From: a virus
Virus record (IMG/VR): IMGVR_UViG_3300013947_000375
Location: 1-49,477 of that record
Direction: 5' to 3' (one strand)
Length of the DNA stretch: 49,477 nucleotides
In this document: positions 10,955 to 46,862 of the stretch, piece by piece
Position numbering within the stretch: position 1 is the first letter of the stretch
How the letters are laid out: each line of letters begins with the position of its first letter
The notes under the pieces: model-generated
Told to the model about the DNA's origin: nothing
What the model saw: only the letters and a program-made list of their open reading frames with translations
The model's database searches: none
Position numbers and translations under genes: made by a program

Positions 10955-12607
10955 GTGCCAAAAATCAATCTTCAGGATGGTGAGCAGGCTAGACTATCCA
11001 TTACTAAAGAACAAGAAGTAGAGATCTCTAAACTGTATCACGAGGTCTATCTAAAGCTAAAGAAGCAGATGGATGCTCTCCCTTTACAGGGGGAGGGTAC
11101 AGCTTCCCAGTCCCTCCGAAAGACCTATCTCAATAAGCTTATCAAACAATTGAAGGCTGAATATAAGTCTTTAGGGGAAGGACTGGAGAAGCAGATCAAG
11201 AAGGGAATGAAAGATACCTCCTCATCTGTGGTTCAAGCTAACGATGACTGGCTTCAAAAAGTTGGTATCAGTATAAAGGGGGCTTACAGTTTTGTTCCCG
11301 GTGACATAGTGTCTCTGGTCTCCATGGGAAAGCTTTATGGTGAAGGATGGACCCTAAGTAAGGCTATCTGGGGGGAGTCTCAAAAACATGCTCATGACAT
11401 AGATAAGATTGTGGCTTCAGGTATAGCGGCCAATAAATCTGCTTATGATATAGCCAAAGACCTAGAGAAGTATGTTAATCCCTCTGCGAAGAAAGAGTGG
11501 GATTGGTCCAAAGTATATCCTGGAACTTCTAAGAAGATTGACTATAATGCTCAACGTCTGGCTAGAACCATGGTCTCTCATGCATATCAGCAAAGTCTAC
11601 TGGCCTCTACTAAGTATAATCCCTTTGTAAAAGGGTATAGGTGGAGATCAGCTCACTCTACTCGTACCTGTGAGCTCTGTAATAGTAGGGATGGCCAAAT
11701 CTATTCAGCAAACAATCTCCCTTTGGATCACCCCAATGGAATGTGTACCTTCATTGTGGAACTCACAGGGGACATGAACTCTATAGCTGAGAGGCTAGGT
11801 GACTGGGCCAATGGAAAAAAGGATCCAGACTTGGATAAGTGGGCTAAGAGTATGTTTTCCCATGGGGGGTTCAAATCCCCTAAGAAAGTAAAGGATTCTA
11901 TTTTAAAATCCCCTAAGGCTACTAAGGCTAAGAGACCTAAAAGGTCTTCTACTCCTAATATTAAAGAATGGATAGCTGGAGTAAAAAAGAATACCCAAAA
12001 GGGAATGCTGGATTGGGAGAATAAGGAGCTAATGAATCTTCCCCAAGAACAGCTAGATGCCCTAAGACTATATACAGGTAGTAGCTTCGAGGAGATGAAT
12101 GGGTATCTAAGACTTTTAGGAAGGGGCCTAAGCAAAGAACAGGCCATAGCTGACTCGGGAATTAGACCTAATCAGCTAGAGGCCATTGAAAAGGCCAAAA
12201 AGGGACTAAGCTCTATAAAGACCACAGAGTCTCTATACCTACGAAGGGGAACTAATCTTGGAGACCTGGCTGGCTTTATGCCTGGGGACTTTGATGATAA
12301 TGTGGACAAATTATCTCGACTTTCTGTGGAGGAGCTAAATAAAAAGTTCTCTGGTACGGTTGGTCTTTACAGTGGTTTTACTAGTACTTCCAGTCTTTGG
12401 GATAGGGGCTTTAGTAACCCGGTAGAGATAATCTTTCATGCCCCTCCAGGTACTTCAGCTTCATCCATTATGAACATATCCCACTATGGAACCAATGAGG
12501 GAGAAACCCTATTAAATGCTGGAACTATGGTTAGAATACTTTCTGTGGAAGAGTCTGATGGGCATATGTACTCCAGGATCAGAATCTTTATGGAGATAAT
12601 TCCCTAA
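10955..12607 (+). CDS. minor head (morphogenesis) protein, SPP1 gp7 / Mu F-like, fused to a C-terminal ADP-ribosyltransferase domain
   Basis: gp7-like NAQRLARTMVSHAYQQ and RTCELCNSRDGQIY; ART R-S-E triad LYLRRG, GFTSTSS, NEGETLL; GTG start after AGGTGAG. Confidence 0.8.
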   Translation: MPKINLQDGEQARLSITKEQEVEISKLYHEVYLKLKKQMDALPLQGEGTASQSLRKTYLNKLIKQLKAEYKSLGEGLEKQIKKGMKDTSSSVVQANDDWLQKVGISIKGAYSFVPGDIVSLVSMGKLYGEGWTLSKAIWGESQKHAHDIDKIVASGIAANKSAYDIAKDLEKYVNPSAKKEWDWSKVYPGTSKKIDYNAQRLARTMVSHAYQQSLLASTKYNPFVKGYRWRSAHSTRTCELCNSRDGQIYSANNLPLDHPNGMCTFIVELTGDMNSIAERLGDWANGKKDPDLDKWAKSMFSHGGFKSPKKVKDSILKSPKATKAKRPKRSSTPNIKEWIAGVKKNTQKGMLDWENKELMNLPQEQLDALRLYTGSSFEEMNGYLRLLGRGLSKEQAIADSGIRPNQLEAIEKAKKGLSSIKTTESLYLRRGTNLGDLAGFMPGDFDDNVDKLSRLSVEELNKKFSGTVGLYSGFTSTSSLWDRGFSNPVEIIFHAPPGTSASSIMNISHYGTNEGETLLNAGTMVRILSVEESDGHMYSRIRIFMEIIP

Positions 12608-12614
12608 GTCCTCA

Positions 12615-12643
12615 TTTACAATTCTCTCCTGTTGTGGTATAAT
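12615..12643 (+). promoter_or_regulatory. sigma-A-type promoter inside the head module
   Basis: TTTACA (12615-12620), 17-nt spacer, TATAAT (12638-12643). Confidence 0.6.
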
Positions 12644-12665: not shown

Positions 12666-12869
12666 ATGAAAGACCTCAAAGCTCGAATTGAAAGTGAAGC
12701 TCGATCCATCACTAGAATCACCAACTCAATGCTACAGTGTAAAGATTGTAAGTTTCGGTTTGATGATTCTGAAGTATTTGGGAATACTTCTCAATGCGAA
12801 GAATACCCCCTAAAACCCAGTCGGGTTTTTAAAGGGGAAGACTGTCCTAAATATCAGAAGGGGAACTAA
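12666..12869 (+). CDS. small Cys-containing protein (67 aa)
   Basis: ORF with GAAGGAGG SD; CKDC...C...C pattern. Confidence 0.6.
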   Translation: MKDLKARIESEARSITRITNSMLQCKDCKFRFDDSEVFGNTSQCEEYPLKPSRVFKGEDCPKYQKGN

Positions 12870-27917: not shown

Positions 27918-28346
27918 TTACTTAGTATGGGCCTTCAGGATGGATCTAGCCAGTTCCAGCTCAGACTTATGAAGATCCTTATCCCATTCCCAGCGGTTAC
28001 CCCCAAAGGGACGGGCAGCAGTTTCGTTTCTAAGAAGCCTTCTGGCTTTGGCAGTTTTCATATGGAACTCAGAAGCCAGTTCCTTCAGGGTAATCAGATT
28101 CTCCTCATTCTTTTCTACCTTAGGAGCTTTAGTCTTCTGGACCTTCTCCTTTAACTCCTTCTGATACTCCTCATTAGCTTTCTTAACAGCAGCTTCATCT
28201 TCCTGAGTCAGCTGAATATTAGTCAGCTCAGTGAGAAGGTCAGCCTTCTTCATGTTCCACCAGGACTTTACCTGGAACTCTTTAGCGAGGGTCTGCAGGT
28301 TCTTGAGGTTCAGGGTCTCCAGATTGATGTTAGTCAGATTAATCAT
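27918..28346 (-). CDS. hypothetical protein with HeH-like N-region and KAR+LLR...W.W C-terminal motif
   Basis: strong SD; LQTLAKEFQVKSWWNMKKADLLTEL; C-terminal KTAKARRLLRNETAARPFGGNRWEW. Confidence 0.7.
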   Translation of the reverse strand: MINLTNINLETLNLKNLQTLAKEFQVKSWWNMKKADLLTELTNIQLTQEDEAAVKKANEEYQKELKEKVQKTKAPKVEKNEENLITLKELASEFHMKTAKARRLLRNETAARPFGGNRWEWDKDLHKSELELARSILKAHTK

Positions 28347-28378
28347 TTTGTATTCCTCCTTAAGATTTTCAGTTGGTA
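28344..28378 (-). repeat. 35-nt leader/SD/start block identical to 46807-46841
   Basis: CATTTTGTATTCCTCCTTAAGATTTTCAGTTGGTA on the plus strand at both sites; 29272-29287 shares the first 16 nt. Confidence 0.85.
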
Positions 28379-45132: not shown

Positions 45133-45165
45133 AAAAAAAATGAGGCCCCCTTTAGGAGGCCCCAC
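45133..45165 (-). terminator. intrinsic terminator after the ARH gene
   Basis: GC-rich hairpin 45142-45164 followed on the minus strand by T8 (45133-45140). Confidence 0.65.
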
Positions 45166-45169
45166 TCTC

Positions 45170-45708
45170 TTAGTTTTTCATGAGCCAGTCAGCCATAACA
45201 TTTAGATCCATAACTACCTTAGGATCCAAAGTGTAGATCCACTTCTTGGGGATCAAGTCAGCCCCAAAGCGAGCTCCTGCAATTCCTCCAGCCAGAGCGG
45301 CTATAGTATCTGCATCCCCCCCATGATTTACAGGTCCCAGAATAGCCCCACTGAAACTCCGGGTATGATGAGCCCAGTAGATAGCATTATTCACAGAATT
45401 TCTTACATGGCCCGTAGGGTCCTTAGGACCACCCTTAAGCCACTCCACAAACCCGGTACAGCAATTGGAGAGAAAATTCTCTTTGCCCTTCATACGGGCT
45501 TTGGCCACAATGGTCATCATCTGGGTATCATCAGTTACTTCTCCCGGATTCAGGAAAAGCCACCCACCCCCAGAATATCAGTAACTTCTCCATATCGGGA
45601 CTGAATTTGGTCCTGGGTCATGAATTCTGTGGTTGCCCCCATGGCATCCCCAATAGCGAAGCCCAATAGGGAACCAAGGATACGATTGCGATTCTTAGTA
45701 TTTGTCAT
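45170..45708 (-). pseudogene. compact ADP-ribosylglycohydrolase (DraG/ARH family) interrupted by a frameshift at a G5 run
   Basis: frame A (45708-45550): MTNTKNRNRILGSLLGFAIGDAMGATTEF...; frame B (open from 45577): GGGWLFLNPGEVTDDTQMM...GGDADTIAALAGGIAGARFG; the frames overlap at 45550-45577 around the C5/G5 run 45567-45571. Confidence 0.75.
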
Positions 45709-45824
45709 CTTTTATTCCCCCCATCCAGATAGTCCACTACTTTCATGATTCCCCCAGTTAATGCAGCTGCTCCTGCCAGGATTACCAGGTAATAAAGTAC
45801 CTCTCTAGCTTGTTCGATAAACAT
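45705..45824 (-). CDS. small membrane protein (39 aa), ATGA-coupled to the ARH gene
   Basis: translated by hand: MFIEQAREVLYYLVILAGAAALTGGIMKVVDYLDGGNKR; GAGGAGGA SD. Confidence 0.5.
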   Translation of the reverse strand: MFIEQAREVLYYLVILAGAAALTGGIMKVVDYLDGGNKR

Positions 45825-45855: not shown

Positions 45856-45884
45856 ATTATAAGAGATAATGGCCAGTTTGTAAA
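45856..45884 (-). promoter_or_regulatory. early promoter
   Basis: minus strand TTTACA, N17, TATAAT. Confidence 0.75.
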
Positions 45885-45912: not shown

Positions 45913-46809
45913 TTATCCCATCTTAGAGACAGCTCTCACGAAGTCGTTGATAGAGCCCTTCAGAGTAGTCTTGATAAAGTGATTTTCCTGAGCCTGGATA
46001 GTATCCTTCTTCAGGGGCTTGTGAGTAACGAAATCAGTATAGGCATTAACCAGTCCCCACTGGGTGCCGATGAAGTTCTGATTATCCTCAGCCTGATATG
46101 CAGCCAGGAATCTGTCCCTCTTCTCTTCCATTCTCCGAACCTGAGTAGGGTTAAACTCCTCTTTGATTTCGAAGATATCATCCAGCAGATGGTCTACCTG
46201 GGACTTAGAGACCTTCTTCTGAGCCAGCAGAATAGCCTCTTTCTGGAACTCAGAAATGTAGTCACTACTATGAATAAGAACCTCCTGAGCCGTATGAAGC
46301 TTACCCTTGATGGATTTGGTATGGCGAAGACTAATCTTGTTTGCCACCTTCCGGAAGGTCAGATTGAACTGATTCTCACAGACAATTCGGAGAGGAGCGA
46401 TAGTAGCTTTAAGAGTAGTATTGCCACTGTGAGAGTTCTGGAAGATGACATGAGGGGCTACCTTATCTCCCATCAGGTCAAACTCCGGAAGCTGGGCGAT
46501 GATGTAGATGAATTTGTGGTTCTCACCAGCCTTCAGGAACTTCAGGCCTTCAGGGATCATGGAGTTGATGAAGTCAAAACCCTCGATGTTCTGAACTATT
46601 TCGAACTGAGAACCAACTACTCCATAGGTCCAGTCAGAATTCTCCCTCTTGGTGCAGAAGGTACCAGGAATGGGGGTTCCATTCTCCAGGAAAACAGGAA
46701 CCTTCTCCACAGTGTAGTCGAGGTGAGAGAGTTTCAGGGCCTCCTCCACAGTGGTGGCCTTGGTGATGTTAGCTCCGATGTTGGTCCAAGTAGCAGTACG
46801 AGTAGTCAT
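45913..46809 (-). CDS. DUF932-family (phage/plasmid-like) protein
   Basis: N-terminal W.NIG...TVEEALKLSHLDYTVEKVPV and FEIVQN pattern typical of DUF932. Confidence 0.6.
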   Translation of the reverse strand: MTTRTATWTNIGANITKATTVEEALKLSHLDYTVEKVPVFLENGTPIPGTFCTKRENSDWTYGVVGSQFEIVQNIEGFDFINSMIPEGLKFLKAGENHKFIYIIAQLPEFDLMGDKVAPHVIFQNSHSGNTTLKATIAPLRIVCENQFNLTFRKVANKISLRHTKSIKGKLHTAQEVLIHSSDYISEFQKEAILLAQKKVSKSQVDHLLDDIFEIKEEFNPTQVRRMEEKRDRFLAAYQAEDNQNFIGTQWGLVNAYTDFVTHKPLKKDTIQAQENHFIKTTLKGSINDFVRAVSKMG

Positions 46810-46862
46810 TTTGTATTCCTCCTTAAGATTTTCAGTTGGTAGGTGTTATCCAGTATGGTTAT

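Follow-up and report, generated by a model that had tools for sequence, protein, structure and literature searches.

The domain of ADP-ribosylglycohydrolases (ARHs) is built on 13 core helices and spans 290-360 residues (Rack et al. 2020, PMC7050489). In DraG, Glu121 of the ExxA motif positions the adenine and Tyr212 stacks on it (PMC7050489), and the residues E28, D60 and D97 make up the DraG signature (PMC8120803). A locus of the DraG type, the arginine-specific class of ARHs, is present on the minus strand of IMG/VR virus record IMGVR_UViG_3300013947_000375. One strand of this record, 49,477 nucleotides (nt), was analysed as a whole and is called the window here; all coordinates refer to it. 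The window is the genome of an uncultured siphovirus (~49.5 kb) and encodes terminase, SPP1-type portal, major capsid protein and tape-measure protein. The ARH gene in it is probably a young pseudogene with two lesions, and we put the probability of this reading at about three in four. The fold, the catalytic signature, the pairing of ARHs with ADP-ribosyltransferases (ARTs) and the fusions of ARTs to MuF proteins are already known, and the locus is a degraded DraG-like member, not a new kind of enzyme.

The remnant resembles DraG (R. rubrum 2WOC/2WOD; A. brasilense 3G9D; PF03747) in that its N-terminal residues 1-97 and its C-terminal ~80 residues are colinear with that enzyme. It keeps E28, D60 and D97, including the DraG-specific Asp97, as well as the GGDxDT metal-binding motif (PMC7050489, PMC8120803). 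Unlike DraG, the window copy is phage-borne and frameshifted, and the equivalent of DraG ~98-210 is missing. It is also found without the DraT/nitrogenase context, its presumed partner being a virion MuF-ART.

Genomic pairing of an R-S-ExE ART with a DraG-like ARH is found in Tre1-Tri1 of Serratia (6DRE/6DRH) and Lmo0066-Lmo0067 of Listeria (8ZA7). Tri1 is a DraG-like immunity protein that undoes the arginine ADP-ribosylation made by the toxin Tre1 (PMC8120803). The remnant matches Tri1 with E=4e-21 and Lmo0067 with E=2e-12, and the ARH and ART of the window match the two chains of 8za7, an ART-ARH effector-immunity pair. Together with DraT-DraG, these pairs may be regarded as known analogues of a writer/eraser or toxin/immunity logic. 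The window differs from them in that the fusion partner of its ART is a MuF head protein of a phage and not a secretion-system effector, and the corresponding phage cassette usually has a Cys-rich open reading frame (ORF) between ART and ARH. Moreover, the ARH of the window's clade has moved to the early region and is broken in the window, and a Tri1-like N-terminal occluding extension is not evident in the window ARH. As in the known pairs, an R-S-ExE ART is encoded by the same element; the adjacency typical of such pairs is not found in the window, where ART and ARH remnant lie ~33 kb apart on opposite strands.

The available text of Jamet et al. 2017 (PMC5576092) and Iyer et al. 2022 (PMC9503650) presents MuF-ART fusions of Alt/VIP2 type as proteins that are packaged in the head and injected. 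The MuF polymorphic toxins of temperate phages treated there are built like the window protein, with MuF at the N-terminus and the ART toxin at the C-terminus, and are followed directly by a small ORF, in what is the classical position of an immunity gene according to the available part of the former paper (PMC5576092). The available text of the two papers does not describe an ARH that regularly accompanies MuF-ART as the third gene of the cassette, the sole mention near it being an ART-ARG pair in some Aeromonas phages (PMC9503650). Known phage ARHs (phrog_6572; Bacillus phage G gp234 and those of jumbo phages) share their Pfam and PHROG family with the remnant. They differ in being only 29-35% identical, over half the protein. 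At the DNA level megablast found no close relatives among GenBank phages, and tblastn with an intact relative returned only distant ARHs at 29-35% identity, from jumbo and Streptomyces phages.

The interrupted ARH gene and its two lesions

An earlier reading of the letters alone (the sequence-only reading) had noticed three ARH/DraG hallmarks split over two frames that overlap only at a G5 run, so that a -1 shift would be needed to obtain a protein of ~180 amino acids (aa), far shorter than typical ARHs. All of this is borne out when both frames are read (Table 1). The frame A product contains GFAIGDAMGATTEF, includes Glu28 of the DraG E-D-D signature and ends DILGVGGFS before its premature stop. 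Frame B is closed upstream by a TGA at 45580..45578, and the overlap of the two frames is confined to 45550-45577. Its product holds GEVTDDTQM and GGDADTIAALAGGIAGARFG, with residues T59-D60-D61, D97 and GGDADT, and the ATG-initiated ORF inside it (45520..45170) gives the 116-aa database protein P0052. A -1 shift, which equals one extra G, rebuilds DILGGGWLFLNPGEVTDDTQM, the counterpart of 'GGGWLRLKPGQITDDT' in DraG, and yields a product of 179 aa; the trans-frame peptide expected from such a shift contains DILGGGWLFLNPGE. The close relatives are single uninterrupted ORFs of 274-290 aa.

Membership of the ARH family is evident from the family-profile match and the DraG-type signature. The repaired 179 aa match Pfam ADP_ribosyl_GH (PF03747) with E=2.6e-34 (cut-off 26.2 bits) and phrog_6572 with E=2e-31, and the best match among solved structures is R. 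rubrum DraG 2woc (E=8e-36). Alignments to homologues and to DraG place the invariant catalytic and metal residues at E28, T59/D60/D61, D97 and GGD132-A-D134-T135, distributed across the two frames. A complete domain of ~290-360 aa and a single uninterrupted coding sequence are not found: the Pfam profile is covered at positions 1-103 of 287 and in a C-terminal stretch, with ~104-200 absent.

Comparison with intact relatives locates the break in frame. At the G-run these relatives read CT[C/A]-GGG-GG[A/T]-GG[C/A]-TGG (Leu-Gly-Gly-Gly-Trp), and the window reads CT-GGGGG-TGGGTGG, with one base fewer. The second difference is a deletion of 98-100 codons (294-300 nt), directly after Asp97, relative to all aligned relatives. 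The blastn matches to three intact loci (L004-L006) break precisely at 45419/45418. In the protein, …WLKGGPKD is joined to PTGHVRNS…, and the relatives hold 98-100 extra residues between D97 and PTGH, among them the near-invariant DVGG.C, LGNGA.MR and LTHNN. In the alignment to DraG, repaired residues 2-~110 correspond to chain positions 7-~115 and residues 100-176 to chain positions 216-292. The lost part is the equivalent of DraG ~98-210, which amounts to ~45% of the fold and includes Glu121, and the position equivalent to Tyr212 survives in the remnant as His101. The remnant protein is short because of this in-frame loss. A repeat-mediated origin of the deletion was considered and set aside: the flanks CCTAAGGAC and CCTACGGGC are alike at 7/9 positions, yet both are retained, and no mechanism can be inferred from them.

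The broken allele is a property of the phage and not of one assembly. P0052, the 116-aa fragment, has been recorded on six contigs. Three loci from other samples (L001-L003; ENA ERZ27300217, ENA ERZ808283 and Logan SRR1747043; assemblers MEGAHIT-style k119, SPAdes and Logan) were compared with the window at the DNA level. L001 and L003 are identical to it over 6351 and 4666 nt, and L002 has one difference in 5971 nt; the G5 run and the deletion are base-for-base the same in all three, and in each the 52-aa and 116-aa pieces are called as separate genes. This allele has become fixed in a nearly clonal lineage of the phage, one that turns up again in different samples. Because independent assemblies agree on the G5 and the deletion, a single homopolymer error is excluded. 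That the true genome has G6 and a continuous 179-aa ORF, as the sequence-only reading had allowed, would account for a break that falls in a homopolymer and for the perfect reading once it is restored. This explanation was rejected and is barely credible: the identical G5 occurs in contigs of at least three other samples from different assemblers, a 5-base run is not error-prone at the consensus level in short-read data, and the repaired gene would still be short of 100 codons.

A family of compact ARHs was also sought. Lengths of 255-308 aa were found for 119 of the best 120 homologues listed from 5.8 billion clustered proteins, and the exception is P0052. When 1.84 billion representatives were searched with HMMER, nearly all of the best 150 matches aligned in at least two stretches, i.e., they hold the missing middle, and none of these 150 was an end-to-end homologue of ~180 aa. 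The short matches are C-terminally truncated fragments (P0256, P0331, P0363) or a different rearrangement (P0379), and a mini-ARH family was dismissed on these grounds. The label 'mini ARH' given by the sequence-only reading is thus misleading, as the protein is short for having lost the middle part of its fold. As a separate observation, many of the 120 homologues sit on contigs of 47-53 kb, as expected for related phage genomes.

Among the explanations offered by the sequence-only reading, a pseudogene is the best supported, with two independent lesions, close relatives that are intact, and no ~180-aa family among the best 150 matches. The intact ancestor would have encoded ~277-281 aa in a small early unit of promoter, 39-aa membrane peptide, ARH and terminator. 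The window gene has lost one nucleotide at the G-run, so that translation ends after 52 codons, and 98-100 codons, including the ExxA (Glu121) segment, directly after Asp97. The result would be no functional hydrolase, and at most traces of a 179-aa core-deleted protein through rare spontaneous -1 slippage on G_GGG_G. The locus is best annotated as a pseudogene; neither 'mini ARH' nor a pair of small ORFs would be an apt annotation.

Lack of decay and the case for recoding

Several findings weigh against a pseudogene. The catalytic and metal residues all survive in the remnant, the deletion is exactly in frame, and the promoter, ribosome-binding site, ATGA coupling and terminator are intact. 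Conservation and the ratio of nonsynonymous to synonymous substitution rates (dN/dS) were evaluated on the retained codons only, with 119 homologues for the former and L004, L005 and L006 for the latter. At 60 columns that are ≥95% conserved, the window has 0 private substitutions, and the other sequences have a mean of 0.32 and a maximum of 2. The dN/dS of the window against the three intact loci is 0.07-0.10, compared with 0.10-0.15 among the intact genes, with synonymous sites saturated. An AlphaFold2 (AF2) model of the repaired 179 aa has a mean predicted local distance difference test (pLDDT) score of 93.5 and a predicted template modelling (pTM) score of 0.91, with a dip at residues 91-110. 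Its confidence is borrowed from the alignment of full-length homologues and is uninformative on stability. The template modelling (TM) score of this model against DraG is 0.89 when normalised on the query and 0.55 on the target, since only 55% of DraG is covered. Finally, a hairpin more stable than is usual in the family lies 3' of the G-run, at a spacing compatible with stimulation of a -1 frameshift.

The substitution pattern indicates that purifying selection acted on the gene along nearly all of the branch to this phage, so that either both lesions are very recent or the remnant is still selected. No relative closer to the window than L004-L006, apart from the near-identical copies, was found in the databases searched, and for that reason recent loss and continued selection are not separable. 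The absence of decay fits a very recent inactivation equally well, without proving one.

Continued selection could mean that the locus is recoded, i.e., that a -1 frameshift on G_GGG_G, aided by the hairpin, gives a 179-aa core-deleted ARH derivative that still works, for instance by binding or occluding the ART as a remnant with bound metal, or by weak hydrolysis at a low dose. The RNA around the run gives a hint in this direction. In intact relatives the G-run itself is paired (z ~0), and in the window it is unpaired and followed after 6 nt by the 10-bp hairpin. The hairpin starts ~4 nt after the nominal heptamer, the range for stimulatory structures being ~5-9 nt from the slip site. The 46-nt segment with the hairpin has a minimum free energy of -16.9 kcal/mol and a z of -2.45, a marginal, post hoc statistic. 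The 45 nt after the Gly codons fold at -14.4 against a mean of -7.6 (standard deviation 2.8) and are stabler than in 81/82 relatives; nevertheless, a segment of equal stability is found in L023, an intact relative. A shift would restore the ancestral peptide exactly, and the retained halves are predicted to pack as in DraG, which goes together with the undecayed sequence, the complete set of metal ligands and the intact expression signals.

The site itself speaks against recoding. CU_G_GGG_GUG does not form an X_XXY_YYZ heptamer: re-pairing is possible for GGG in the P site but not for GUG in the A site, on GGU. The diverged relatives are all continuous ORFs that need no shift, and the shift is common only to near-identical copies of this phage, so that neither a canonical heptamer nor conservation of the shift, as found at programmed -1 sites, is present here. 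Furthermore, ~45% of the fold, with the adenine-binding ExxA segment, is removed, and the best 150 representative matches contain no other end-to-end ~180-aa homologue. The confidence of the AF2 model stems from the full-length alignment and is no guide to stability. Thus slippage-controlled expression, the third explanation of the sequence-only reading, is not supported, with only G_GGG_G to slip on and relatives that need no shift; what speaks for it is the hairpin after the run and the absence of further decay. We regard a working recoded protein as unlikely. A more specific version is less likely still: low-level shifting would yield a 'half-ARH' of 179 aa with its di-metal site whole and without the adenine module, and this protein would regulate the virion ART in a dosed manner or act on it as an occluding immunity factor. 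If it were true, nature would have reduced and recoded a fold of which no other member below ~250 aa has been seen.

The same lack of decay and the intact upstream signals could be explained if one of the pieces, the 52-aa N-terminal peptide or the 116-aa protein starting at ATG 45520, had taken on a non-hydrolytic function, and gene callers do predict both pieces in every assembly. Both are, however, found only in one near-clonal lineage, neither is a complete ARH structural unit, and no ribosome-binding site was seen before ATG 45520 by eye, no dedicated test having been run. A new function of the fragments is accordingly very doubtful. The G-tract might instead be a phase-variable switch that toggles between G5 (off) and G6 (on) in phage populations; the lesion does fall in a G-run, and one more base restores the frame. 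However, five bases are short for a contingency tract and G5 is present in all sampled assemblies. An in-frame G5 occurs at the Gly-Gly-Gly codons of 10/82 relatives, and all of them (82/82) are intact, with no sign of switching. Such a switch is highly improbable. A recently inactivated pseudogene remains the preferred reading.

The MuF-ART, the Cys-rich ORF and ARH in relatives

The MuF-ART of the window ends in an ADPrib_exo_Tox domain (residues ~330-550; PF03496, E=1.6e-17) in which the motifs R (LYLRRG), STS (FTSTS) and ExE (NEGE) are all present. This domain aligns with the C3-like ART 4xsg and with Listeria Lmo0066 (8za7_B; E=1e-4), and judging from these motifs the ART is apparently intact. 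The 67-aa Cys-rich ORF (CxxC…C…C) directly after it has no family match in Pfam or PHROGs, and its product is a candidate for an immunity protein or a chaperone of the ART.

The relation of ARH to ART becomes visible in other phages. The ART was located by local tblastn against 80 IMG/VR loci found with an ARH alignment, of which 75 have enough upstream sequence. In 43/75 evaluable loci an ART domain lies <1.5 kb upstream of an intact ARH. A homologue of the Cys-rich ORF stands between the two in 34/43 (e.g., L026, L034, L039, L050), and none is detectable in the other 9. The order is MuF-ART, Cys-rich ORF, ARH (e.g., L039:1148-3300; loci L012-L086). Bacterial genome loci with ARH relatives, mostly from Clostridia (Finegoldia, Parvimonas, Anaerococcus, Ruminococcus), have a MuF-ART adjoining the ARH in only 3/79, and the cassette is for this reason chiefly a feature of phage contigs. 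In the window's clade (L004-L011), the ARH sits in the early region instead, and longest contigs of the same lengths (50332, 46213, 50098, 52144, 35722 and 47515) for MuF-ART proteins and intact ARHs suggest that the two co-occur.

The neighbourhood and the homology suggest that the ancestral ARH most likely erased, or protected against, arginine ADP-ribosylation by the phage's own head-packaged ART. This could have served as immunity during assembly, as timed erasure after injection or as protection of lysogens. The link to the virion ART proposed in the sequence-only reading is therefore supported for the intact ancestral gene, by homology and by the 43/75 neighbourhoods, and not for a working protein in this phage. 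A second, compensating ARH was searched for in the window and none was found. The ARH looks dispensable for this phage because the phage recurs in several metagenomes with an apparently intact ART and Cys-rich ORF and no second ARH; perhaps the Cys-rich protein or something else covers its function. This lineage may thus be a natural knockout, which keeps an apparently active Arg-type head-packaged ART together with the Cys-rich ORF and has lost the hydrolase that most relatives retain. It raises the questions whether the ARH in MuF-ART phages is an eraser or immunity factor for their own toxin, and whether the Cys-rich protein is the primary immunity factor and the ARH only a back-up. The cassette of MuF-ART, Cys-rich ORF and ARH in phages of Clostridia is a more interesting lead than the broken gene itself.

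The MuF homologues themselves vary. The closest MuF-ART to that of the window (94% aa identity; L166, logan SRR32374833_210504) comes from the same sample as L004 (logan SRR32374833_155549), and it may belong, together with the intact ARH of L004 (P0001, 279 aa, the closest), to one sister phage with an intact ARH. Some close MuF homologues (P0219, P0218 and P0231; ~81% identity in the N-terminal domain) end at 307 aa or carry a 504-aa non-ART C-terminus, a variation typical of the domain swapping in polymorphic toxins. Carriage of an ARH does not strictly require a MuF with an ART, as P0231 is matched with the intact ARH P0025 by longest contigs of equal length (48766). It was also considered that loss of the ARH followed a change of ART subtype. 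This was rejected, since the same FTSTS/EGETL subtype occurs alongside intact ARHs (P0160/P0042, P0153/P0069, P0178/P0094 and P0213/P0063, pairs inferred from longest contigs of equal length).

Transcription unit and neighbouring features

The sequence-only reading had the ARH gene coupled by ATGA to a 39-aa membrane peptide, with its own promoter and terminator, and each of these elements was recovered (Table 1). A Shine-Dalgarno sequence is present ahead of the 39-aa ORF. The terminator hairpin folds at -24.7 kcal/mol (z -4.8), as well as which 0/200 shuffles fold, and the site was also called, more weakly, by a second scan.

Table 1. Features of the ARH locus and of the MuF-ART region, in window coordinates
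Feature	Position	Strand	Remarks
MuF-ART fusion (head-packaged ADP-ribosyltransferase)	10955..12607	+	PF04233 + PF03496; presumed partner of the ancestral ARH
67-aa Cys-rich ORF	12666..12869	+	directly after MuF-ART; own exact TTTACA-N17-TATAAT promoter at 12615-12643, inside the late region
Intrinsic terminator	45133..45171	-	hairpin + U8; hairpin base overlaps the TAA stop
ARH remnant, frame B	45170..45577	-	-1 relative to frame A; open from 45577 to TAA 45172..45170
In-frame deletion junction	45418..45419	-	...CCTAAGGAC / CCTACGGGC...
10-bp hairpin	45537..45560	-	GCUUUUCCUG-AAUC-CGGGAGAAGU; starts 6 nt after the G5 run; premature UGA at the stem/loop edge
ARH remnant, frame A (N-terminal)	45550..45708	-	52 codons; premature TGA 45552..45550
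G5 run	45567..45571	-	the frame is broken here by the loss of 1 nt
39-aa ORF, intact	45705..45824	-	one hydrophobic segment; TGA overlaps the ARH ATG (45708) as ATGA
Sigma-70-type promoter	45856..45884	-	TTTACA-N17-TATAAT; 11/12 consensus positions

The unit is shared with the intact relatives. A homologue of the 39-aa ORF precedes the intact ARH with the same 4-nt overlap in L004, L005 and L006 (L004:2885-3004, L005:2885-3004, L006:2539-2658), and common to the three loci is the order of 39-aa peptide, intact ARH of 277-279 aa and a DUF2786/DUF7168 gene. The peptide has no family match in Pfam or PHROGs. DraG is regulated by membrane sequestration, and by analogy a tethering role for this single-pass membrane peptide is conceivable.

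The pattern TTTACA-N17-TATAAT has seven exact copies in the window (plus strand, 354 and 12615; minus strand, 46891, 45884, 45111, 34614 and 32604), for a chance expectation of ~0.006 (12-base pattern, both strands). Several of the copies share the extended flanks CCATTTACAAA…TCTCTTATAATGA. By their sequence, the seven appear to form a family of phage promoters that the host's primary sigma factor would recognise.

The gene upstream of the unit of 39-aa ORF and ARH is mosaic. It is a DUF932 gene in the window (45913-46809) and in L006; at the same place L004 has a NUMOD3-type homing-endonuclease-like ORF and a 117-aa ORF (L004:1861-2430), and in L005 the opposite strand carries an ORF of 330 aa. 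A secondary blastn match further revealed a 42-bp direct repeat, 95% identical, at ~46800-46841 of the window, in the start region of the DUF932 gene, and at 28337-28378.

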